Shown here: piece by piece, positions 6,017 through 48,618 of the stretch
How the letters are laid out: every line of letters begins with the position of its first letter
How positions within the stretch are numbered: position 1 is the stretch's first letter
Source: Escherichia coli
GTDB lineage: Bacteria; Pseudomonadota; Gammaproteobacteria; Enterobacterales; Enterobacteriaceae
Length of the DNA stretch: 64,000 nucleotides
Strand: one strand, 5' to 3'
NCBI RefSeq assembly: GCF_009931435.1
Contig: NZ_CP043414.1
Notes under the pieces: generated by a model
Databases searched by the model: none
What the model was told of the DNA's origin: nothing
The model's input: the letters and a program-made list of their open reading frames with translations, nothing else
Program-made: the position numbers and the translations under genes

Positions 6017-8461
6017 ATGATGATTTTGAGTATTCTCGCTACGGTTGTCCTGCTCGGCGCGTTGTTCTATCACCGCGTGAGCTTATTTATCAGCAGTCTG
6101 ATTTTGCTCGCCTGGACAGCCGCCCTCGGCGTCGCTGGTCTGTGGTCGGCGTGGGTACTGGTGCCTCTGGCCATTATCCTCGTACCGTTTAACTTTGCGC
6201 CTATGCGTAAGTCGATGATTTCCGCACCGGTATTTCGCGGTTTCCGTAAGGTGATGCCGCCAATGTCGCGCACTGAAAAAGAAGCGATTGATGCAGGCAC
6301 TACCTGGTGGGAAGGCGACTTGTTCCAGGGTAAGCCGGACTGGAAAAAGCTGCATAACTATCCGCAGCCGCGCCTGACCGCTGAAGAGCAAGCGTTTCTC
6401 GACGGCCCGGTAGAAGAAGCCTGCCGGATGGCGAATGATTTCCAGATTACTCATGAGCTGGCGGATCTGCCGCCGGAGTTGTGGGCGTACCTTAAAGAGC
6501 ATCGCTTCTTCGCGATGATCATCAAAAAAGAGTACGGCGGGCTGGAGTTCTCGGCTTATGCCCAATCTCGTGTGCTGCAAAAACTCTCCGGCGTGAGCGG
6601 GATCCTGGCGATTACCGTCGGCGTGCCGAACTCATTAGGCCCGGGCGAGCTGCTGCAACATTACGGCACTGACGAGCAGAAAAATCACTATCTGCCGCGT
6701 CTGGCGCGTGGTCAGGAGATCCCTTGCTTTGCACTGACCAGCCCGGAAGCGGGTTCCGATGCGGGCGCGATTCCGGATACCGGGATTGTCTGCATGGGCG
6801 AGTGGCAGGGCCAGCAGGTGCTGGGGATGCGACTGACCTGGAACAAACGCTACATTACGCTCGCGCCAATTGCGACCGTGCTTGGGCTGGCGTTTAAACT
6901 TTCCGACCCGGAAAAACTGCTGGGTGGCGCAGAAGATTTAGGCATTACCTGTGCACTTATCCCGACCACCACGCCAGGCGTGGAAATTGGTCGTCGCCAC
7001 TTCCCGCTGAACGTACCGTTCCAGAACGGACCGACGCGAGGTAAAGATGTCTTCGTACCGATCGACTACATTATCGGCGGACCAAAAATGGCCGGGCAAG
7101 GCTGGCGGATGCTGGTGGAGTGTCTCTCCGTGGGGCGCGGCATCACCCTACCTTCCAACTCAACCGGCGGCGTGAAGTCGGTGGCGCTGGCAACGGGCGC
7201 GTATGCGCACATTCGCCGTCAGTTCAAAATCTCTATCGGTAAGATGGAAGGGATTGAAGAGCCGCTGGCGCGTATTGCCGGTAATGCCTACGTGATGGAT
7301 GCTGCGGCATCGCTGATTACCTACGGCATTATGCTCGGTGAAAAACCTGCCGTGCTGTCGGCTATCGTTAAGTATCACTGTACCCACCGTGGGCAGCAGT
7401 CGATTATTGATGCGATGGATATCACCGGGGGTAAAGGCATTATGCTCGGTCAGAGCAACTTCCTGGCACGAGCTTACCAGGGCGCACCGATTGCCATCAC
7501 CGTTGAAGGGGCCAACATTCTGACCCGCAGCATGATGATCTTCGGTCAGGGAGCGATTCGTTGCCATCCGTACGTGCTGGAAGAGATGGAAGCGGCGAAG
7601 AACAATGACGTAAACGCGTTCGATAAACTGCTGTTCAAACATATCGGTCACGTCGGTAGCAACAAAGTTCGCAGCTTCTGGCTGGGCCTGACGCGCGGTT
7701 TAACCAGCAGCACGCCAACCGGCGATGCCACTAAACGCTACTATCAGCACCTGAACCGCCTGAGCGCCAACCTCGCCCTGCTTTCTGATGTCTCGATGGC
7801 TGTGCTGGGCGGCAGCCTGAAACGTCGCGAGCGTATCTCGGCACGTCTGGGGGATATTTTAAGCCAGCTTTACCTCGCCTCTGCCGTTCTGAAGCGTTAT
7901 GACGACGAAGGCCGTAATGAAGCCGACCTGCCGCTGGTGCACTGGGGCGTACAGGATGCGCTGTATCAGGCAGAGCAGGCGATGGACGATTTACTGCAAA
8001 ACTTCCCGAACCGCGTGGTTGCCGGGCTTCTGAATGTGGTGATCTTCCCGACCGGACGTCATTATCTGGCACCGTCTGACAAGCTGGATCATAAGGTGGC
8101 GAAGATTTTACAAGTGCCGAACGCCACCCGTTCACGTATTGGTCGCGGTCAGTACCTGACCCCGAGCGAGCATAACCCGGTTGGTTTACTGGAAGAGGCG
8201 CTGGTGGATGTGATTGCCGCCGACCCAATTCATCAGCGGATCTGTAAAGAGCTGGGTAAAAACCTGCCGTTTACCCGTCTGGATGAACTGGCGCATAACG
8301 CGCTGGCGAAGGGGCTGATTGATAAAGATGAAGCCGCTATTCTTGTGAAAGCTGAAGAAAGCCGTCTGCGCAGTATTAATGTTGATGACTTTGATCCGGA
8401 AGAGCTGGCGACGAAGCCGGTAAAGTTGCCGGAGAAAGTGCGGAAAGTTGAAGCCGCATAA
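6017..8461 (+). CDS. fadE: Acyl-CoA dehydrogenase FadE
   Basis: ORF 5939..8461 trimmed to the ATG at 6017, giving 814 aa [14 protein letters not shown]...; N-terminal membrane segment plus acyl-CoA dehydrogenase body. Confidence 0.95.
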
Positions 8462-8977: not shown

Positions 8978-9130
8978 GTTATTAACCTCCTAAAGCCTGG
9001 CGATAACACGATAATTTGCAAATCAGATATTTCCAATATCAGCATTTGTTATCAATTTATTCTGCGCTAAGGCAACTGCCTGATAAGGTGTTAGAGTTAT
9101 AAAACCCTTCACATAAAGGAGTTGTACACC

Positions 9131-9901
9131 GTGCCTGGTTTGAAGATTACGCTTTTGCAGCAACCACTGGTGTGGATGGATGGTCCTGCCAACCTGCGCC
9201 ATTTTGATCGTCAACTAGAAGGTATTACCGGGCGCGATGTGATCGTTCTACCGGAGATGTTTACCAGCGGCTTTGCCATGGAAGCGGCCGCTTCGTCGCT
9301 AGCACAAGATGACGTAGTGAACTGGATGACAGCCAAAGCGCAGCAGTGCAATGCGTTGATTGCAGGCAGTGTTGCATTACAAACGGAGTCTGGTACGGTT
9401 AACCGCTTTTTGCTGGTTGAACCGGGCGGCACGGTACATTTTTATGATAAGCGTCATCTGTTCCGAATGGCAGATGAGCATCTGCATTATAAAGCGGGCA
9501 ATGCGCGAGTGATTGTGGAATGGCGCGGCTGGCGTATTTTGCCGCTGGTGTGCTACGACTTACGTTTTCCAGTGTGGTCGCGCAATCTCAACAATTATGA
9601 CCTCGCCATCTACGTCGCCAACTGGCCTGCACCGCGCTCTCTGCACTGGCAGGCATTGCTGACAGCCCGCGCGATTGAGAATCAGGCGTATGTGGCGGGA
9701 TGCAATCGCGTCGGCAGCGATGGCAACGGCTGCCATTATCGCGGTGACAGCCGGGTGATTAATCCACAGGGCGAGATTATCGCTACTGCCGACGCGCATC
9801 AGGCAACGCGCATTGATGCGGAGCTGTCGATGGCGGTGTTAAGGGAATATAGAGAAAAGTTTCCGGCATGGCGGGATGCGGATGAGTTTAGGTTGTGGTG
9901 A
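9131..9901 (+). CDS. yafV: Nitrilase-superfamily omega-amidase YafV
   Basis: ORF 9122..9901; likely GTG start at 9131 (256 aa); carbon-nitrogen hydrolase fold with catalytic Cys in the VCYDLRFP region. Confidence 0.9.
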   Translation: MPGLKITLLQQPLVWMDGPANLRHFDRQLEGITGRDVIVLPEMFTSGFAMEAAASSLAQDDVVNWMTAKAQQCNALIAGSVALQTESGTVNRFLLVEPGGTVHFYDKRHLFRMADEHLHYKAGNARVIVEWRGWRILPLVCYDLRFPVWSRNLNNYDLAIYVANWPAPRSLHWQALLTARAIENQAYVAGCNRVGSDGNGCHYRGDSRVINPQGEIIATADAHQATRIDAELSMAVLREYREKFPAWRDADEFRLW

Positions 9902-10029
9902 GTGGGGGTTGTGTTTAGGGCCGGGGAGAGTTGGGGTATGACTACGAAAGCCCGCTCTCCTGCGACCACTTTTATCATAGGAGTGTGGAAGTGCTTTTCC
10001 ATCAATCGCGATGACGTCTCAGGGAAAGA

Positions 10030-11103
10030 TTACGAAAGCCCGCTCCCCGCAAGGACTGACGCCAGATACTTTCTGTCCATGGCTGCTTTTCGCATCTTAC
10101 GTCTTAACCCTGCCTTGAATACCTTATCATTCGTCAAAATATTAATTGCGATGTGCCGTATCCCTGAAAATAATTCTGCTGCATTTCCTCTTCTTATTTT
10201 GCAGTCGTCTTCATTCATTACCACGTCCAGACGCCAGTGCAGCTTATTCTCCACGTGCCAGTGGTTTCGGATTGCTGTGGCGAACTTCTCTGCGGTTAAA
10301 TCAGCAGAACTGATATAATATCTGACCGTCATTTCTGGCTCTTTCTTTTGTTCTGCTATTATTGACCGAAAGGAGACTGCCACGCATAATTTCTTCAGAC
10401 CTTTCCATTCAAACGTGAAATCAATAAGTTCATCAGGGACATCGCAAACAATGTGAAGACGGATTTCTTCTCTGCCGTGACTCTTTTCACTAATTGCGTA
10501 ACTGTCATGCTCTGGATTATTTAATTCTTTCAGCGGAAATTTTTCCTCGAAGCCTTTATTTAGCCGCCCCTGGTTTCCTTTTACAGCGAATAAATAATCA
10601 CCTCCCTGTTTTTGTATCTTCTCTGCAATATCTTTCTGGCAACCCATCGCATCAGTTGTGATGATTTTTCCTTTAATATCCAGCATGTTAAGAAGTTCTG
10701 GGATAGCTGTAATCTCATTGGATTTCTCATCCGTCTTGATCTGTCCGATGACCAGACTGTGCATTGTTGAGAACGCACTAATGACATGAATCGCTCCCCT
10801 GCGGCGACTCTTGTCATAAGAGTGCCGGAGCGTTTTTCCATCAATTGCAATGACGCCTTTATCATCTGAAGAATGGCAGTCACGCATCCAGTTAATAAAG
10901 CACTCGTGAAATTTTGCAGGACTGATACAGGATACAACTCTGGCAATGGTATCGTGAACAGGAATACCATTTTCAAAATCACCATATTGCTTCAAAAAAT
11001 CGAGATGTGTTTCCCCAAAATCCTCTATATCTTCCCAACCTTCTGCACCCGAAATAACGGCGCAAATAGTCAACAGTAGAATATCCGATAATTTATGTTC
11101 CAC
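10030..11103 (-). mobile_element. H-repeat-associated (ISAs1-family) transposase, the H-rpt element classically found at the distal end of E. coli Rhs elements
   Basis: 357 aa protein with DDE-type transposase features, strongly similar to the E. coli H-repeat proteins (YhhI/YbfD type); located directly downstream of the Rhs array. Confidence 0.8.
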
Positions 11104-11295
11104 TTTCTAGGCTTGTCTGTAATCGGGGATAATAGAAATATGTTCCATCAATTTTTTAAGTTCCATTTTGTTCTCCTTAATTATGTAAGGAGTATTTGAT
11201 CATGTATAAGCAATAAAAAACAGCTTCAGGTAATGAGGAATATCTCAATTTTTAAACATAAAATGCGAATTGTTTAGTACAAAAAAGCAGCGTTA

Positions 11296-11416
11296 CGTGA
11301 TCTTTCCCTGCCAGCCCCTCCGGGTTGACCTGCTCCGTCACCCGCAGAACCCTGCACAATATCCAGTCCCTTGCAGGTCATGTCACCCTGCCGCGCCGCC
11401 GGTTTTCCGCTCATGG
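11296..11416 (-). pseudogene. Vestigial rhs 5' end (start codon plus about 80 nt) fused to a short internal rhs fragment
   Basis: Bases 11340-11413 nearly match the first 70-plus nt of both rhs genes (compare 16134-16207 and 22269-22342), and are preceded by ccctccgggttgacctgctccgtcacccg, which also occurs inside rhs at about 15060. Confidence 0.55.
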
Positions 11417-11546
11417 TTTATTCCTTTTCTTTTACCTTACATGGCCATACAAATAGTTACCTATACTGTCTTTGAATATTGCCCTATCATTTAAAGCCCA
11501 CCTAATTTTTGCGACAGCAAAGGGATTTCTTTTTTAATCCAATCTA

Positions 11547-11951
11547 TCATTTCATTTTTTTAAAACATACGTTAATGCCATTCACACTTCCACATTCACC
11601 AAAAGCATCAAAATAAATTTCACATTTATTGTTGCCTTTCGAAATGATGCTAACCCCCCATCTTATATTGTTATATTTTTCTTTTCTGAAATACTTCATT
11701 TGCAATAAATCAATTATCTTACCCGCATAGAGATCGCTAAGTTCATTCACCACCACTTTATATCTGTATATTTCATTAAGACCTTCCTTGCTAAGCGGAA
11801 CTAACGTGGTAACATACGATGGAAGATTAACTACCTCTATCGTTTTCACGCTATCTATTCCACACAATTCATTCACTCGCCCCATCCCCAATACCGAACC
11901 AGAAAATAGAGACAATAAAACCATCAAATATTTCATCATAAAAAACCTCAC
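11547..11951 (-). CDS. Putative Rhs immunity protein (RhsI) for the rhs-A C-terminal toxin; has a signal peptide
   Basis: 134 aa, AT-rich, starts at the rhs-A stop codon; N-terminus MKYLMVLLSLFSGSVLG looks like a Sec signal peptide; position is that of an immunity gene. Confidence 0.55.
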   Translation of the reverse strand: MRFFMMKYLMVLLSLFSGSVLGMGRVNELCGIDSVKTIEVVNLPSYVTTLVPLSKEGLNEIYRYKVVVNELSDLYAGKIIDLLQMKYFRKEKYNNIRWGVSIISKGNNKCEIYFDAFGECGSVNGINVCFKKMK

Positions 11952-14900
11952 TATTCTGGCGTACCCGTTATTGTCATCGTCTGCAACGGTCCATCCACCC
12001 GATAAAAAGGCAGTCCACTATGAGCTCCTCTGACACACTCATCTAAAGTTTTCGCCGCACGCGATTCAATTATTGTAATAACCCTTGCCTCTTCTTTATT
12101 ATCATATTTCTTATCCGTCCGACTTAAAAGAGCCATGAAATTTTCTTTATCAAGAAGGTAATACTGTGCATGTGCAAACTCATGCCCCAAACCTAATGCA
12201 GGCGATTGTGATTTCGAGTTTAATTCAGTTGAACAAAATAAAGACGCTCTACTATTCCAATATATCGTCATATTATTCGAATTAAATCTACCATTGGTTC
12301 CTTCAATATACTCTATATTTATAGTTTCTTCAGAGCTTGATAAAAAATCTATAGCATCTTTCATTCGTGAATCTTTTTCTAAATACTTAACAGCCTGATT
12401 AAAATCACTTGGATCACCATTAACCTCGAATTTTAAACCCAAAGAATCTATAAACCGAACAGGGTTTAATGGATATTTATACAGATTCCATTCACCTCTT
12501 AGCCCGATTGGATCCTGCGTGATATACCTCCCCTGCAACGGGTCATAGTACCGGTGACGGTTGTAGTACAGCCCCGACTCCTCATCATACTGCTGCCCTG
12601 GCAGACGGTACGGCTGTTGCAGGTGCTCCGGGTTTTCCTCTCCCAGCAGGTTTCCCCACTCGTCATACTCCCCGCGCCACGCCGTTTCCCCTTCCGGGCT
12701 GATAAGCGCCTGCGGCAGCCCACGGTGGTCACAGTGGTAAAGATGAAGTTTCCTCTCCGGGATGTATTCTTCCTCCATCTGGTTGTTCATCTGTTCCGCC
12801 GTCAGCCCGCACTGCGCAAGCCATGCTTCACTCTCCGCACTCACCGCACCCGCGCGCAGTTCCCGCTCCAGCCTCCCCAGCATCACCGACAGCTCCGCCG
12901 GGAGCGTCACACCCGTGTCCTCCTGCAACACCTCCGCCAGGCTACGGTGCCGCGCCTTCGCCTGTTCGCCATTCTCTGTTTCGATTCTCAGGAGCGGCGT
13001 GAAGCTTCCCGGCTGATAAATCGTCTGGATACGTGTGGTGCCGGTCTGTACCGTCGTCAGCCTGTCACCGTCCCACCCGTACCATGTCTCCTCCGGTTTA
13101 CGCGACAGCGACATCCATCCCGTCAGGTCACGCTCCCGCCGCCACACCCGTTTTCCCGTCCTGCGGCCCAGCGGGTCGTAAAGGTAGCGGCTCTCCACCT
13201 GCGGCTCGCCGTGCTGTATCCGCGTGTAGAACACCAGACGGTGCTGGCTGTCGTAATGGTAGTGGTGGGTGCGCTCGTCGTGCATCCGTATCACCCCTTC
13301 CGGGATACGGTCCGTCTTCTCCGCCAGCCTGCCGTATTCATCGTGGCGGTAGACATAGTGCGCATCTTCCGCGATGCGGTTATCCGGCCACGCCGTGAAG
13401 GTGCTGTCCGGGTGCAGTTCCGGGTCCGGCAGCCGGTTTCCTGCCGGGTCCGTCGCATACGGGATATCAATGTCCAGGTTCGCTGCCGTGGTGTGGACGC
13501 CCGTCAGCCTTCCCGTGTCGCTGTAACGGTACTCCCGGCTCTCCTGCGGGCCGCTGATACGCACCAGTTGCCCGTTATCATTCCACGTATACTCACGGTC
13601 AAGCTGCGGAAGGTTCAGGTGCCTGCTCCGGAGCTGGCCTGTGAGGGTGTATGTGCTGGTCAGTTCATATGCGGCATTACTGCCTGCCATGCTGCCGAAG
13701 CTGCGCACCGTCTCACGGTGCAGCCTGTCCCGCGTGTACTCGACCAGCGGCGTTCCGCCCAGCTTCATCCCCGCAAGATAACCGCTGCCATACGTCAGCC
13801 ACTCCACCGGCGGCAGACCGTCCGGCTCCTGACGGGTCGCCAGCCCCTGTTCGCTGTACGCGTGCCCCGTCTCATGCTCCCACAGCATCTCCCCCGTCTC
13901 CGGGTTCTCCACCGTCTGCCGTTCGCCCGTCAGGCGGCCCTTATCGTCATAGCCGTAGTGGACCGCCACACGGTGGCCTTCACTGGTATGGCTGAGGGTG
14001 GTTAACCACCCGTGCTCATCATACTGCCACTGCTCTGCCGCTTCGCCGTTCACCGTCCGGTGCGTGATGCGGTCCGACGCATCGTAGTGCCAGAGGGTGA
14101 TAAGTCCCTCGTCTTCACTGCGGACAAGCTGCCCTGTGGCGCTGTACCGGTAACGCTGTGTCCGTCCGTCAAAGCCGCGCTGCTCCGTCAGGCGGTCCAC
14201 CGGGTCATACAGGAACGTGGACTGGCTGCCGTTCTCATTAGTCAGCGTGGTGATGCGCCCGGCGGCGTCATACCCCATGCTGCGCGTCAGACCGCCCTGC
14301 GTGGTGCTGATAGCTTTACCCCACGCATCATACTGTGTCTCACTGCGGCTGCCGTTCGGGGCAATGATAGCGGTGAGGTCGCCTGCGGCGCTGTACTCAT
14401 AACGGGTTTCACGCCCCTGCACATCCTTCTGACTGACCAGTTGACCACGCGGGTTATAACTGCTGTAAGTGCTGATGCCTTCTTCCCGGTGAACCGCCGT
14501 CCTCTGCCCGTACCGGTCGTACTCATACCGTGTCGTGTACCCCGAGCAGTCCGTGAAGGCCAGCAGTTGACCGTAGCGGCTCCATGCCATCTGTTTTGTA
14601 CTGCCCGTCGCATCCTGTATCCCTGTCGGCAGCTCACTCGCCGGGTCATCATAGCTGTACCGCGTCGTCTCACCGCTGCGCGAGGTCTCCGCCGCCAGCC
14701 TTCCCTTCTCATCATACTCCCGGCTGCTGCGAAGCCCGTCCGGGTACGTCACTGACGTCACCTGCCGCTGGCTGTTGTAGCCATACCGCACCGTCCTGCC
14801 GTCCGGCCCCGTCACCGCCGTCACCGCGCCCGACGCCATATGCAGGCTGTACTCCGTCCGCCGCCCCGCCGCATCCGTCTGCGCCTTCAGCCTCCCCGCC

Positions 14901-16207
14901 GCATCATACTCGCTGCGGGTGATGCTCCCGTCCGCATGCTCCTTCTTCACCACCCGCTTCAGGCCACCCTCGCCTTCCGTGTACAGCACCTCCCGCCTGT
15001 TCAGGCTGTCCGTGATGGTCACACGGTCCTGCCCGTACTCAAAGCGGTAGGCCAGCCCCTCCGGGTTGACCTGCTCCGTCACCCGACCGGTATCATCATA
15101 CCGGTAGCGGCTCTCCGGCCTCCCCGCATAATGGTGCGCCACCATCCGCCCGGCGTGCTCCGCATCATAAGTAAACCCGCGCACCTGCGTCCCGCTGCGG
15201 TCATACACCGCCAGCAACTCACCGCTGGCCGTGTACGTGTAGCGCGCCAGCGGCGCAGTCGGCTGTTCATCCGGGTATGCCGGGTCGTGTGTCAGCCACA
15301 CCGCCTCCAGCCGGATACCGTTATCGGCACCGTATTCTGTACCGGCGGGCAGCGTGTCGGGGAAAACCTGAGAAGAGGAAACAGAACGGGGACCGGCAGG
15401 GGAAGATAAAGACGTGGCGCGCTGTTTACGGCAGGCTTCCGCCCGCTGCGCCTGCGTGCTCAGCAACAGGTGAAAACGACGGCCCGCACCGTCCGTCCCC
15501 CCCGTCACCGCGCCCGCCACGTCACCCTCCGCTGCCCGGTGAAAGGCCAGCGTCCGACCAAAGCCATCCACCACGCCCGTCAGCACCCGGTATGCGGGCG
15601 GTTCCGGCGGCAGCACCTCGTCCGCCCCCGGCACCCGCTCCGGCCAGCTGAGTATCCACCACGGCCCCTGAAGGCTGTTTGTCGCCAGGTACACATGCGG
15701 ACTCAGGCGAACATCTTCCGGCAGCACCTGCCAGAGCGCGCTTAGCGGCTGCGAACTGTGCTGCTCCGCCCCCCCGCCCCGCGCCAGCCAGAACGACTCG
15801 CTGCGGCTGTAGCTTATCTCGCCGGGAAACAGCGGCTCAAAGTGAATGCTCCTGCCGCCGTTGTCGTTGAGTATCAGTTCCCGCTCATGAACCTGTAAGC
15901 GGATATCGAAGGGCGCTTTCCAGCCGGGGCCGAACACGCCCACCGGCGCGGGCGTCCTGGTCCGGTAACTGCTGTAAGCGCGGGAAAGAATAAACGGCAG
16001 CGGGCCGGGCAGTGCCAGGTCCGTCTCGCCCGGCAGCACCTTCGCACCCAGCACCGGGTTCACCGGGTTAGCATAGGTAATCCCTCCCGGACACACCGAG
16101 CAGGCCACTCCCGTCGGCGCACCTATCAGCACCCCTGCTGAACCCTGCACAATATCCAGTCCCTTGCGGGTCATGTCGCCCTGCCGCGCCGCCGGTTTTC
16201 CGCTCAT
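11951..16207 (-). CDS. Rhs-family polymorphic toxin (distal copy) with PAAR-like N-terminus, YD-repeat shell and a C-terminal domain carrying an HExxH motif
   Basis: 1418 aa; N-terminal [16 protein letters not shown]...VACSVCPGG, many YD repeats, DPIGL demarcation motif, then a unique roughly 160 aa tail containing [10 protein letters not shown]. Confidence 0.9.
12502..16207 (-). repeat. Rhs core repeat, copy A (near-identical to 18628..22342; apparently perfect over about 12502..14060)
   Basis: Identical antisense ORFs at a fixed 6126 bp offset (12554..14005 and 18680..20131, etc.) and direct line-by-line comparison. Confidence 0.85.
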
Positions 16208-16330
16208 GGTTTATTCCTCTTCCTCTGAATAAACTTATTTTTGATGCACTAATGATTTTCAAAAGAGATTTATATTTAACGACAATTCAGCACTTTTAAT
16301 GTAAAAGATCCCCGGCTGAATGATATTCAC

Positions 16331-17299
16331 TCATTGTTTGTTATCAGAAAGTGTTTTATACAGCGGCACATATCCCACGTCTTCCACAAGACTTTGCCCC
16401 TGAGGGCTTAAAAACCAGTCCACTAGTTTTTGTGTTTCCGGTGTCGGCTTTTCGCGGGTGACCATGTAGGCATCCACCACATACGGATAAGTACCGTTGC
16501 GGATATTCTCCACCGTTGGTGCAATACCATTTATTGCCAGCAGCTTAAGATTTGGGCTTATATCCTTATTCATCTGTGTGACATAATAGCGGAAGGTGTA
16601 ACCAATTGAAGGCTGCGTATTCCGGTAGGCAATTACTTTGGTTAACACTCCATTCATAAGGCTTACTTCTGTAGATGTTCTGGCGGGTAGCATCGGTGTC
16701 TCTTTCATCACCTTTGCCAGCATCACCGTCTGGCTACCGGAATCTTCCGGACGCTGCCAGACCTGAATGCGCTCATCACTGCCACCAACCTGACTCCAGC
16801 GGGTGATTTTACCGCTGAAGATATCCCGAACCTGCTGTTCAGTAAAAGAACTGACCGGATTACTGGCGTTAACGATAAAAACAAAGGCTTCGTGGGCGAA
16901 GGGGGTATAAACCAGTTTCACCCCGGCATCGGCAGCCCGTTGTTTTTGTCCTGCGGAAGGCTGGGCAACAAAAATAACATCGGCCTGGCGCTTTATGAGA
17001 TCATTATAGGCTTCTGGTGTACGAGTCGGATACATATAATTCAAACCCGGATCTTGATGGTTATCCCCGGGGATCAAATATCGGTAAGCTGAAGCATACA
17101 GTGGATATAACGCGGTTGCACCACATACCCGGGGCCATTTATTCGAGTTATCAGTGTAGCGTAAAGTGGGTTCTCCTCGTATATTGGTTTTCTCCCAACT
17201 CACTGTTTCTTTTACGCTGTTATCGCCCCCGCCGTCTACACATCCTGACATTAATACCGTCATATAAAATAATACTGGTAACAGGCCCACCCTACGCAT
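16331..17299 (-). CDS. PstS-like (phosphate-binding-protein fold) lipoprotein; start uncertain, ORF extends to 17365
   Basis: 344 aa ORF; probable start MRRVGLLPVLFYMTVLMSGC with lipobox; AT-rich; lies between the two Rhs modules. Confidence 0.6.
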   Translation of the reverse strand: MRRVGLLPVLFYMTVLMSGCVDGGGDNSVKETVSWEKTNIRGEPTLRYTDNSNKWPRVCGATALYPLYASAYRYLIPGDNHQDPGLNYMYPTRTPEAYNDLIKRQADVIFVAQPSAGQKQRAADAGVKLVYTPFAHEAFVFIVNASNPVSSFTEQQVRDIFSGKITRWSQVGGSDERIQVWQRPEDSGSQTVMLAKVMKETPMLPARTSTEVSLMNGVLTKVIAYRNTQPSIGYTFRYYVTQMNKDISPNLKLLAINGIAPTVENIRNGTYPYVVDAYMVTREKPTPETQKLVDWFLSPQGQSLVEDVGYVPLYKTLSDNKQ

Positions 17300-17627
17300 A
17301 CAATGATTTAATAAATACGCCATATACCTCACTCTAAAATATTGATTATATAAATACATATGCATAATTATATTTACATCAAATTCTGAATGAACAATTT
17401 AAATTTAGAGAAAGTGAAATTTAATTTTTCGATACTTCCGCATACATATTCCCCTCGCTAAAAAATCATCATTCCACAATCAATCATTAATTACAACTCA
17501 ATATACATCATTTAACTTTCATTAAACTCGCAATTTATTATTACATTGTAGCCATTATGAACTGTCATCACGCACACACTCTACATACACATTAGAAACA
17601 ATATAACCCCATGAGCCATCCTCCGTT

Positions 17628-18074
17628 TCAATACTTAGTGCAGCGTGTCTTAAGGAAATTAGAAGCCACAACATCAATCTTTTCTTTTAAGACTAAATCA
17701 TCCACATAATCACAAGACAAATAGAAGTCATTACCATCGGCCATTATAAATATCCTCATAGGTAAAGATTTATCATTATCAACATGAGCATTCGTAATAA
17801 TCCAATAATAAGGAAATCTAACATTTTTTGTAGGAATACCCAATAAATCATAAGCTTTATTATTATATTCTATCGCTCCCTTAACAAACGTTGGTTTGAC
17901 CTCCTTACCAATAATGCGATGCGACGTATATTCTTCCTTCTCAGCAAACGATTGCATTAATGCCCATATAGGTTTATTTGCCAGCTCACCGTGATGAAAA
18001 ATCCGATAAAAATACACTCCTAAAAAAAATATTAAGCCTAAGCAAACCAATACCATGAGGCAGTTCTTACTCAT
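17628..18074 (-). CDS. Putative Rhs immunity protein (RhsI) for the rhs-B C-terminal toxin; N-terminal membrane anchor
   Basis: 148 aa, AT-rich, overlaps the rhs-B stop by 4 nt; N-terminal hydrophobic helix [18 protein letters not shown]. Confidence 0.55.
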
Positions 18075-21000
18075 TGATTAAAATCCGTAAAATTAGAAGG
18101 AACAGGGCCATTCTCAGGTGAAAACAATGGAGATGTATTTGATACTCGTGATGCTATCATTTCTACAGTAGCAGGAAGATACATTGGCATTCCATTATCA
18201 CCACCTAGCGGATCAGTTGAAGTTAAAATTTCATTTATTGAATCTACTGAGACTCCCGCATGCAACATTGCCTCAATAACCATTGTTGCACAATTGTGCG
18301 TAAAATAGTTATAGTCACTTCTATCTACTTTATATTTTTCATCAATGTACTTAATCATTGCTTTCTCTTGTTCTGGCGTGGTTTTAATTGTATATATCCT
18401 CGTGCTTCTACGTTGTGCTTGTTCAGTTAAATAAGCTATGACACTCCCTCCACGTGGGGTAGCGGTTCCATAGCTATATACCCCTTTTCCAGTAAATGCC
18501 ATCGCAGAATGCCCTAATGGATTACCACTCGTGGGTCCCCCAGCAAAAATAAGGGTATCCAAACCAAGTGGATCTATATTTATAGTTGGATTCCACGGAT
18601 ATTTATAAAGATTCCATCCCCCCGCAAGCCCGATTGGATCCTGCGTGATATACCTCCCCTGCAACGGGTCATAGTACCGGTGACGGTTGTAGTACAGCCC
18701 CGACTCCTCATCATACTGCTGCCCTGGCAGACGGTACGGCTGTTGCAGGTGCTCCGGGTTTTCCTCTCCCAGCAGGTTTCCCCACTCGTCATACTCCCCG
18801 CGCCACGCCGTTTCCCCTTCCGGGCTGATAAGCGCCTGCGGCAGCCCACGGTGGTCACAGTGGTAAAGATGAAGTTTCCTCTCCGGGATGTATTCTTCCT
18901 CCATCTGGTTGTTCATCTGTTCCGCCGTCAGCCCGCACTGCGCAAGCCATGCTTCACTCTCCGCACTCACCGCACCCGCGCGCAGTTCCCGCTCCAGCCT
19001 CCCCAGCATCACCGACAGCTCCGCCGGGAGCGTCACACCCGTGTCCTCCTGCAACACCTCCGCCAGGCTACGGTGCCGCGCCTTCGCCTGTTCGCCATTC
19101 TCTGTTTCGATTCTCAGGAGCGGCGTGAAGCTTCCCGGCTGATAAATCGTCTGGATACGTGTGGTGCCGGTCTGTACCGTCGTCAGCCTGTCACCGTCCC
19201 ACCCGTACCATGTCTCCTCCGGTTTACGCGACAGCGACATCCATCCCGTCAGGTCACGCTCCCGCCGCCACACCCGTTTTCCCGTCCTGCGGCCCAGCGG
19301 GTCGTAAAGGTAGCGGCTCTCCACCTGCGGCTCGCCGTGCTGTATCCGCGTGTAGAACACCAGACGGTGCTGGCTGTCGTAATGGTAGTGGTGGGTGCGC
19401 TCGTCGTGCATCCGTATCACCCCTTCCGGGATACGGTCCGTCTTCTCCGCCAGCCTGCCGTATTCATCGTGGCGGTAGACATAGTGCGCATCTTCCGCGA
19501 TGCGGTTATCCGGCCACGCCGTGAAGGTGCTGTCCGGGTGCAGTTCCGGGTCCGGCAGCCGGTTTCCTGCCGGGTCCGTCGCATACGGGATATCAATGTC
19601 CAGGTTCGCTGCCGTGGTGTGGACGCCCGTCAGCCTTCCCGTGTCGCTGTAACGGTACTCCCGGCTCTCCTGCGGGCCGCTGATACGCACCAGTTGCCCG
19701 TTATCATTCCACGTATACTCACGGTCAAGCTGCGGAAGGTTCAGGTGCCTGCTCCGGAGCTGGCCTGTGAGGGTGTATGTGCTGGTCAGTTCATATGCGG
19801 CATTACTGCCTGCCATGCTGCCGAAGCTGCGCACCGTCTCACGGTGCAGCCTGTCCCGCGTGTACTCGACCAGCGGCGTTCCGCCCAGCTTCATCCCCGC
19901 AAGATAACCGCTGCCATACGTCAGCCACTCCACCGGCGGCAGACCGTCCGGCTCCTGACGGGTCGCCAGCCCCTGTTCGCTGTACGCGTGCCCCGTCTCA
20001 TGCTCCCACAGCATCTCCCCCGTCTCCGGGTTCTCCACCGTCTGCCGTTCGCCCGTCAGGCGGCCCTTATCGTCATAGCCGTAGTGGACCGCCACACGGT
20101 GGCCTTCACTGGTATGGCTGAGGGTGGTTAACCACCCGTGCTCATCATACTGCCACTGCTCTGCCGCTTCGCCGTTCACCGTCCGGTGCGTGATGCGGTC
20201 CGACGTATCGTAGTGCCAGAGGGTGATAAGCCCCTCGTCTTCACTGCGGACAAGCTGCCCTGCGGCGCTGTACCGGTAACGCTGTGTCCTGCCATCAAAG
20301 CCGCGCTGCTCCGTCAGGCGGTCCAGCACATCATAGGTAAACTCACTCCGGCTGCCGTTCTCGTTGGTCAGCACGGTGATGCGCCCGGCGGCGTCATACC
20401 CCATGCTGCGCGTCAGCCCGCCCTGCGTGGTGCTGACGGCCTTTCCCCACGCATCATACTGTGTCTCACTGCGGCTGCCGTCCGGGGCAATGATAGCGGT
20501 GAGGTCGCCTGCGGCGCTGTACTCATAACGGGTTTCACGCCCCTGCACATCCTTCTGACTGACCAGTTGACCACGCGGGTTATAACTGCTGTAAGTGCTG
20601 ATGCCTTCTTCCCGGTGAACCGCCGTCCTCTGCCCGTACCGGTCGTACTCATACCGTGTCGTGTACCCCGAGCAGTCCGTGAAGGCCAGCAGTTGACCGT
20701 AGCGGCTCCATGCCATCTGTTTTGTACTGCCCGTCGCATCCTGTATCCCTGTCGGCAGCTCACTCGCCGGGTCATCATAGCTGTACCGCGTCGTCTCACC
20801 GCTGCGTGAGGTCTCCGCCGCCAGCCTTCCCTTCTCGTCATACTCCCGGCTGCTGCGCAGCCCGTCCGGGTACGTCACTGACGTCACCTGCCGCTGGCTG
20901 TTGTAGCCATACCGCACCGTCCTGCCGTCCGGCCCCGTCACCGCCGTCACCGCGCCCGACGCCATATGTATCCGGTACTCCGTCCGCCGTCCCGCCGCAT

Positions 21001-22342
21001 CCGTCTGCGCCTTCAGCCTCCCCGCCTCATCATACCCGCTGCGGGTGATGCTCCCGTCCGCATGCTCCTTCTTCACCACACGCTTCAGGCCACCCTCGCC
21101 CTCCGTGTACAGCACCTCCCGCCTGTTCAGGCTGTCCGTGATGGTCACACGGTCCTGCCCGTACTCAAAGCGGTAGTCCAGTCCCTCCGGGTTGACCTGC
21201 TCCGTCACCCGCCCGGTATCATCATACCGGTAGCGGCTCTCCGGCCTCCCCGCATAATGGTGCGCCACCATCCGCCCGGCGTGCTCCGCATCATAAGTAA
21301 ACCCGCGCACCTGCGTCCCGCTGCGGTCATACACCGCCAGCAACTCACCGCTGGCCGTGTACGTGTAGCGCGCCAGCGGCGCAGTCGGCTGTTCATCCGG
21401 GTATGCCGGGTCGTGTGTCAGCCACACCGCCTCCAGACGGATACCGTTATCGGCACCGTATTCTGTACCGGCGGGCAGCGTGTCGGGGAAAACCTGAGAA
21501 GAGGAAACAGAACGGGGACCGGCAGGGGAAGATAAAGACGTGGCGCGCTGTTTACGGAAGGCTTCCGCCCGCTGCGCCTGCGTGCTCAGCAACAGGTGAA
21601 AACGACGGCCCGCACCGTCCGTCACCCCCGTCACCGCGCCCGCCACGTCACCCTCTGCCACCCGGTGGAAAGTCATCGTCCGACCAAAGCCATCCACCAC
21701 GCCCGTCAGTACCCGGTATGCGGGTGGCTCCGGCGGCAGCACCTCGTCCACTTCCGGCACCCGCTCCGGCCAGCCGAGCACCAGCCACTGCCCGGTTGTG
21801 CTGACAGCCATCATATAGGTGTGTGGACTCAGGCGGACCGCTTCCGGCAGCGCCCGCCAGAACCGCGCAAGCGGGTGTCCTTTATGCTGTTTCAGCACCC
21901 CGCCCCGCGCCAGCCAGAACGACTCGCTGCGGCTGTAGCTTATCTCGCCGGGAAACAGGGGTTCAAAGTGGATGCTCCGGCCACCGCTGTCGTTAAGTAT
22001 CAGTTCACGCTCACAAATCTGTAAGCGGATGTCGGAGGGGGCTTTCCAGCCGGGGCCGAATATCCCCACCGGGGCTGGCGTCTTCGTCCGGTAACTGCTG
22101 TAGGCGCGGAAAAGGATGAACGGCAACGGGCCGGATAGTGCCAGGTCGGTTTCAGCAGGCAGTACCTTCGCTCCCAGCAGCGGGTTTACCGGATTGCCAT
22201 ATTTCGGCGTGGCTTCCCCTGTGGGACACACCGAGCAGGCAACCCCCGTCGGCGCACCTATCAGCACCCCTGCTGAACCCTGCACAATATCCAGTCCCTT
22301 GCGGGTCATGTCACCCTGCCGCGCCGCCGGTTTTCCGCCCAT
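18071..22342 (-). CDS. Rhs-family polymorphic toxin (vgrG-proximal copy) with PAAR-like N-terminus and a C-terminal domain with a His...Cys pattern (possible permuted papain-like hydrolase)
   Basis: 1423 aa; same architecture as the other rhs; after DPIGL the tail contains GHSAMAF...YSYG...[12 protein letters not shown]. Confidence 0.9.
18628..22342 (-). repeat. Rhs core repeat, copy B (near-identical to 12502..16207)
   Basis: See copy A; N-terminal 250 codons are more diverged, the central and 3' core is almost identical. Confidence 0.85.
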
Positions 22343-48541: not shown

Positions 48542-48618
48542 TGGCGGAACGGACGGGACTCGAACCCGCGACCCCCTGCGTGACAGGCAGGTATTCTAAC
48601 CGACTGAACTACCGCTCC
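48542..48618 (-). tRNA. aspV: tRNA-Asp (GUC)
   Basis: Reverse complement matches the 77 nt E. coli tRNA-Asp sequence. Confidence 0.97.

Follow-up and report, generated by a model that had tools for sequence, protein, structure and literature searches.

A probable scar of Rhs-array erosion at the yafV edge of the aspV–yafV T6SS/Rhs island of Escherichia coli

Introduction

How does an Rhs array come to end, beside the chromosomal gene yafV, in a patchwork of insertion-sequence and rhs fragments? The question is raised by a 64,000-nt stretch of the Escherichia coli chromosome (contig NZ_CP043414.1, assembly GCF_009931435.1), referred to below as the window; all positions are counted from its first nucleotide. 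Between the end of yafV and the first gene of the array, at 9902–11546, the window holds an insertion sequence, pieces of an rhs gene, and a second, partial copy of the insertion-sequence end. Here, we describe what these parts are, compare them with the corresponding locus in complete E. coli genomes, and weigh the routes by which the arrangement could have formed.

Results

The Region Lies at the Edge of a T6SS/Rhs Island

A 3-kb query around the region matched 5,425 of 5,426 complete E. coli genomes. On its upstream side lie fadE, ivy, and yafV. The last of these (9122..9901, plus strand) encodes 2-oxoglutaramate amidase, is recognized by NCBIfam PRK10438 with 541.9 bits, and is annotated as yafV in the matching genomes; it is the chromosomal backbone gene that bounds the island. 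Beyond the region, the minus-strand order is a dsORF-h1-type gene, rhs, an ORF resembling periplasmic binding proteins (PBP-like), a second small downstream ORF, a second rhs gene, and vgrG. Past vgrG come T6SS genes (tssD, tssC, tssH, and tssM), tRNA-Asp (48542–48618), and dnaQ. Because yafV stands on one side and the T6SS genes, tRNA-Asp, and dnaQ on the other, we place the region at the yafV edge of the aspV–yafV T6SS/Rhs island (∼38.6 kb). The initial annotation of this DNA, made from the sequence alone, had called it an island edge, and the call is correct: the region follows directly after yafV. The aspV–yafV site is reportedly the RhsG position of Wang, Zhao and Hill 1998. The rhs gene found there has been named rhsG, and deletions in the island have been documented (2023 paper, PMC10711316).

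The dsORF-h1-type gene (11547..11939, minus strand) is the presumed immunity gene of the proximal full-length rhs gene (11951..16207, minus strand), which holds source-like sequence for both rhs pieces described below. The second rhs gene (18071–22342, minus strand) is 95.4% identical to the proximal one over the core. The two diverge in their last ∼520 nt (18074–18700 and 11954–12700, both minus strand) and therefore carry different toxin tips; the distal tip gives a weak Lnb_N match and the proximal tip a sub-threshold Peptidase_M91 match. The PBP-like ORF between the two rhs units (344 aa; 16331–17365, minus strand; PF12849, 5e-32) is an unusual Rhs-array passenger. In the dsORF-h1-type gene, a 1-nt deletion in a T-run near 11555, relative to 2020CK-00188 and GN4751, swaps the last 21 residues (NEMIDWIKKEIPLLSQKLGGL) for MK-stop. 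The presumed immunity gene may be truly frameshifted, or the missing T may be a sequencing error in the homopolymer.

A Complete ISEc1 Copy Carries a Disrupted Transposase Gene

Most of the region is a complete copy of ISEc1 (H-rpt), a member of the ISAs1 family, 1,291 bp long (10020..11310, minus strand). Homology to the yhhI and ydcC copies covers precisely this span, and over the 1,291 nt the DNA identity to the K-12 yhhI (RhsB) and ydcC-type (RhsE) copies is 97.4%. In its size of 1,291 bp, its single ORF, and the ends that it has in common with other copies, the element agrees with the ISAs1 type, for which a length of ∼1.2–1.3 kb is expected. The ORF, a transposase pseudogene of 378 codons (10030..11166, minus strand), scores 414.8 bits against NCBIfam NF033564 transpos_ISAs1 (cutoff 70) and also matches Pfam DDE_Tnp_1 and DDE_Tnp_1_assoc. 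This score and the yhhI/ydcC homology confirm the earlier assignment of an ISAs1-family H-repeat transposase distal to the Rhs array.

Codon 20 of the transposase (11107–11109), TGG in relatives, is an in-frame TAG in the window; the nearest genome has C at base 11108, where the window has T. Because of this amber codon, the gene is a pseudogene unless the stop is suppressed. Other yafV-linked H-rpt copies have independent nonsense codons, at codon 18 (GN4751, OkiPb01705) and at codon 44 (2016-02-324). Neither the codon-20 TAG nor the 67-nt internal transposase fragment described below figured in the initial annotation.

That annotation had named terminal inverted repeats and target-site duplications as features by which the element could be checked. 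Termini of ISAs1-family elements start with CAGGG (ISfinder). By inverted-repeat comparison, the right terminal repeat (CAGGGAAAGATTACG...) occupies 10020..10044 and the left one (...CGTGATCTTTCCCTG) 11286..11310; the two 25-nt arms are 80% complementary, and their outermost 11 nt (CAGGGAAAGAT) pair perfectly. The inverted repeats are thus present. A target-site duplication, 8–10 bp in the ISAs1 family, is absent: the flanks (...gatgacgtct before the element and ccagcccctc... after it) are not direct repeats. None was seen at the K-12 H-rpt copies examined either. The missing duplication fits rearranged flanks and is no argument against ISAs1 membership; because of it, a simple insertion cannot be demonstrated. 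An apparent 13-nt extension past the IS right end, which would have meant that ydcC copies share the flank of the window copy, proved to be a chance resemblance, the flanks not being common.

A Stub of an Older H-rpt Adjoins yafV

The sequence TACGAAAGCCCGCTC is found exactly at 9943–9957 and at 10031–10045, 88 nt apart and in direct orientation, and the direct repeat reaches 27 nt at 85% identity (9934–9960 versus 10022–10048). The initial annotation had described it as a duplicated 3′ end of the transposase gene. The repeat is real, but the present copy did not produce it by duplication; its outer half is the terminus of an older H-rpt. The 67 nt at 9953–10019 reproduce, at 79% identity, an internal stretch of the transposase gene, 10792–10858 (E = 1e-10), and since this fragment adjoins the repeat, the repeat is not a small local duplication.

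With position 1 of the IS taken as its left end, the resulting 88-bp stub (9932..10019, minus strand) can be divided into two pieces. Positions 9932–9960 correspond to IS ∼1263–1291, that is, the right terminus with the last transposase codons, and positions 9953–10019 to IS 453–519; they join at an 8-nt microhomology, CGCTC(T/C)CC (9953–9960). The terminal piece (∼1263–1289) was recognized in the window from the direct-repeat comparison, blast giving no match there. Judged by this composition, the 88 bp is evidently the remnant of a second, older, internally deleted H-rpt copy.

The same stub allele adjoins yafV in 1,097 of the 5,426 complete genomes, and longer versions exist. In 2016-02-324 (L002), it comprises IS 110–519 and 1263–1289 and is followed by a full H-rpt copy; in Z0117EC0005 (L010), it comprises IS 1–519 and 1263–1289 and stands alone. 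At the same border, K-12 yafF consists of IS 1001–1280, running on to a similarly diverged terminus.

It could be argued that the ∼20-bp repeat is a footprint of the present IS copy, either a target-site duplication or an end duplicated by aberrant transposition. Such an origin would agree with the direct orientation of the two repeat copies, with their spacing of 88 nt, and with the fact that one of them is the actual IS terminus. However, the outer repeat runs into the internal transposase fragment, and the stub occurs without an adjacent full copy in Z0117EC0005, each of which refutes a footprint, and its presence in so many genomes speaks against one as well. The outer copy has also diverged from the inner one, to 85% at the tip and 79% in the internal piece, and a target duplication would flank both IS ends, whereas the left flank is rhs sequence. 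We therefore give a footprint almost no credence and treat the 88 bp as what is left of an older element.

A MITE-like ISEc1 derivative was also considered for the stub and rejected, as the 88 bp have no left inverted repeat and contain just the diverged right terminus and IS 453–519. Divergence of the stub from ISEc1 falls mostly in IS ∼450–519, with 14 mismatches in 70 nt (window 9953–10019; L002 3953–4019; the L010 remnant), and IS 110–449 of the 2016-02-324 remnant differ from ISEc1 at just seven sites. The comparison suggests that the old stub may be a mosaic, or may carry a patch converted from a more distant ISAs1 relative.

An rhs Relic Abuts the Left End of the IS

On the other side of the IS lies an rhs relic of 119 bp (11311–11429, minus strand), composed of a ribosome-binding site, rhs nt 1–74, and rhs nt 1123–1157. 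The ribosome-binding site and nt 1–74 together occupy 11341..11429 (minus strand). At 83 of 86 positions, 11344–11429 are identical to 16137–16222, a segment upstream of and reaching into the proximal rhs gene. The ribosome-binding site takes up 15 nt (11415–11429), and the start piece matches positions 1–34 of NCBIfam RHS_core (E = 1.7e-9). The internal core fragment (∼11311..11344, minus strand), nt 1123–1157 of the proximal rhs, is identical to 15051–15085 at all 35 positions of 11310–11344, and a 33-mer from it has three matches in the window against 0.00 expected. The two pieces overlap by a 4-nt microhomology (11341–11344), and the internal fragment ends flush against the left end of the IS (11310/11311). 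The initial annotation had likewise seen an rhs start joined to an internal rhs fragment, and both parts stand. Its span, 11296–11416, needs correction: the first 15 nt (11296–11310) belong to the IS left inverted repeat, and the ribosome-binding site (11415–11429) was left out.

The fusion of the two pieces is out of frame and yields a 46-codon ORF (11274–11414), which differs between lineages and is meaningless. Neither a toxin tip nor an immunity ORF was found between 11311 and the IS, and promoter-like and terminator-like sites in the stub and the relic occur at shuffle level, with no enrichment. An Rhs orphan C-terminal tip was rejected as an identity for the relic, which holds core nt 1–74 and 1123–1157 alone. 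No function is indicated for the region, and nothing in it is predicted to be expressed or functional today.

A Third rhs Gene Was Lost, and Erosion Is Ongoing

The interval between the relic and the stop codon of the dsORF-h1-type gene (11430..11546, minus strand) has its ortholog in strain PM4, where it lies upstream of a full-length rhs gene. In PM4, this gene, annotated “RHS element core protein,” starts at exactly the position of the relic, directly after dsORF-h1, and in the alignment the sequence upstream of it is that of the window apart from one mismatch. From the full-length gene at the orthologous site, we conclude that a third rhs gene was lost at the relic position. The suggestion made earlier, that an rhs copy had been deleted here, is thereby upheld. 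In PM4, both island ISEc1 copies are cut by IS1, at IS positions 21 and 135 (L009 2103–4115 and 9645–11504), and the right end of one copy borders the 3′ tip region immediately upstream of dsORF-h1, replacing the rhs gene and T6SS.

A shorter relic, in which rhs nt 1–41/42 run directly up to the H-rpt left end, is present at the same position in 987 genomes, for example, GN4751. The pair of junctions seen in the window recurs in just one other complete genome, 2020CK-00188, where it is identical base for base. Since the allele is common to this one genome only, the junctions could be used as lineage markers. In 2020CK-00188 (L001 5953–8100), a further deletion fuses the proximal rhs gene, its N terminus missing, to tagH, and vgrG, the second rhs gene, and part of the T6SS are therefore lost. 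From this later loss of most of the proximal rhs gene and part of the T6SS, we conclude that erosion of the Rhs array is ongoing, in keeping with the ongoing recombination that had been proposed at the outset.

The recurrence in 2020CK-00188 also bears on the quality of the assembly. Repeats of this kind are prone to misassembly, with two 95%-identical rhs genes and multiple ISEc1 copies per genome, and collapse of ISEc1 or rhs repeats could in principle have created the arrangement. But both junctions are reproduced in an independent genome, and intermediate structures are found in many complete genomes; an artefact is thus exceedingly improbable, and we take the arrangement to be real.

Could the relic have been kept because it is useful, either as a homology “landing pad” (ribosome-binding site plus first 74 nt) for incoming rhs genes or as the source of a small expressed peptide? 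At least 988 genomes have an rhs-start relic here, its ribosome-binding site and ATG are retained, and recombination is a known source of Rhs-array diversity (Jackson et al., 2009, PMC2935791). However, the length of the relic and its downstream frame vary by lineage (42 nt versus 74 + 35 nt), from which it follows that there is no conserved relic peptide. Moreover, 74 nt are marginal for RecA-dependent recombination, the promoter signal is not above chance, and common descent explains the persistence of the relic equally well. We consider a useful relic very unlikely and regard the piece as debris of the lost rhs gene.

The counterpart of the window junction, that is, the IS right end joined to rhs nt 1158 onward, was found in none of the 5,426 genomes. 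The IS right end joined to rhs nt 40 onward was found in nine complete genomes, at the ansP/yncG (RhsE) locus where examined. Examples are L011 6040–6083 and L012 6001–6083, and the yafV-side partner is L006 8215–8265. The junctions at rhs nt 40–42 resemble two halves of one H-rpt insertion, with a 2–3-bp overlap, that now reside in different Rhs loci. They suggest that an H-rpt may really have inserted into an rhs start at nt 40–42 and that the halves were later separated. The RhsE locus of strain D2 (L012 ∼7480–7500, minus strand) has a lone sequence, CAGGGAAAGATCATCG, that looks like the left terminus of H-rpt; situated ∼150 nt upstream of a complete ISAs1 copy, it may be another H-rpt end remnant.

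Discussion

Read in the orientation of the transposase, the region consists of dsORF-h1, the rhs relic, a complete amber-mutated ISEc1, the 88-bp H-rpt stub, and yafV. We are fairly sure that it is a non-functional scar at the yafV edge of the aspV–yafV T6SS/Rhs island, left by IS- and repeat-mediated erosion of the Rhs array. Structures of this sort are known, as is the locus, and the window adds no element of a new type; PGAP already annotates the parts of the region in a near-identical genome. What the region does display is the manner in which the island decays on its yafV side: by way of IS copies, by deletion at microhomologies, and by the disappearance of entire rhs genes.

We reconstruct its history as follows, with the succession of the steps and the way in which the IS-flush junctions formed resting on inference. 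An old H-rpt beside yafV lost IS 520–1262 by deletion between two CGCTCCCC repeats, as the structure of the stub shows. A third full-length rhs gene evidently once followed dsORF-h1, as comparison with PM4 shows. An H-rpt end may then have become joined to this third gene at nt 1157, with loss of the DNA from there to the yafV-side H-rpt, either by homologous recombination between directly repeated H-rpt copies or by transposase-mediated adjacent deletion. The surviving 5′ rhs piece lost nt 75–1122 by the 4-nt microhomology deletion visible at its junction. The right end of the full copy would have come to abut position 453 of the old stub, by a process that we can only surmise, at a junction directly observed in the window. 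Finally, the transposase acquired its TGG-to-TAG mutation, the product of which is read at codon 20.

Over IS 1–248, the amber base is the only difference between the full ISEc1 copy and the Z0117EC0005 stub. This identity fits a recombinant origin of the full copy, of which it is no proof; it discriminates poorly, because the ydcC copy differs there at just one further position.

Of the two routes to the IS-flush junctions, one dispenses with insertion followed by IS–IS recombination and attributes them to one-step, transposase-mediated adjacent deletions that start from a fixed yafV-side ISEc1; it would imply that ISEc1 was recently active. The yafV side is indeed fixed while the left-end flank varies, being rhs nt 1157 in the window, rhs nt 41/42 in L006, unrelated DNA in L002, and a site near tssA in L010. 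In addition, the right end of the full copy abuts different positions of an old copy, 453 and 110, and 21 in K-12 RhsC. Against this, insertion plus homologous recombination yields the same end products, a 3-nt (GCA) microhomology deletion in the window type would also produce the L006 junction, and nonsense codons have arisen independently in several of the yafV-linked copies. ISEc1 is not known to transpose, and the E. coli W paper likewise states that no transposition has been demonstrated. One-step adjacent deletion is, in our estimate, rather unlikely. If IS-anchored deletion proved true, it would explain in concrete terms why E. coli lineages have so often, and independently, lost this T6SS.

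A broader proposal reverses the usual role of the element, ISEc1/H-rpt having long been treated as an immobile passenger of Rhs elements. It might instead be an active agent that repeatedly inserts into rhs genes and prunes the T6SS/Rhs island from its yafV edge. The proposal is prompted by IS-end-flush junctions at several points and by the split halves at rhs nt 40–42; we put it forward tentatively, as a doubtful but possible account. The reading that we prefer for the region itself remains a scar of IS- and repeat-mediated erosion.

Among known systems, the relic recalls the Rhs orphan C-terminal tips, which likewise are rhs remnants situated downstream of an rhs–immunity pair that is itself intact. 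An orphan tip, however, derives from the 3′ part of the core and brings along an alternative toxin tip together with an immunity gene (Jackson et al., 2009, PMC2935791). The relic comes from the 5′ start of the gene and lacks both, so it cannot supply a new toxin.

The H-rpt copies at K-12 RhsB (yhhI) and RhsE (ydcC) are the same 1,291-bp element with the same ends, are also distal to rhs and a downstream ORF, and are likewise without a target-site duplication. The 1,291-bp H-rpt is said to have been described by Zhao et al. in 1993. The yhhI and ydcC transposase ORFs are intact, whereas the window copy has an amber at codon 20, and their flanks are unique DNA, whereas those of the window copy are the rhs relic and the older H-rpt stub.

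K-12 RhsC (ybfQ, ybfL, and ybfD) resembles the window in having a head-to-tail series of H-rpt copies on the distal side of its Rhs element. Their layout is C1 1–381, C2 1–1291, and C3 21–911 + 1225–1281, so that a complete copy abuts internal positions of truncated neighbours and one copy is internally deleted, both of which hold for the window as well. The window differs in having two H-rpt copies and not three, in its breakpoints (453–519 + 1263–1291), and in its locus.

K-12 yafF, reportedly the “min 5” H-rpt fragment of Zhao et al. in 1993, occupies the same chromosomal position as the window stub, with an H-rpt right end ∼30 bp after the yafV stop. Both have the same diverged terminus, GGGGTAT(T/G)AC, in place of CAGGGAAAGAT. 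In yafF, IS ∼1001–1291 are contiguous and the rhs/T6SS island has been wholly lost, whereas in the window 88 bp are kept and the island is retained.

A further comparison is with the RhsG/T6SS-linked rhs element at aspV–yafV itself, which has the same locus and the same composition of vgrG, rhs, downstream ORF, and H-rpt. Compared with that element, the window has two full rhs genes and the relic of a third, with exact junctions that it has in common with a single other complete genome.
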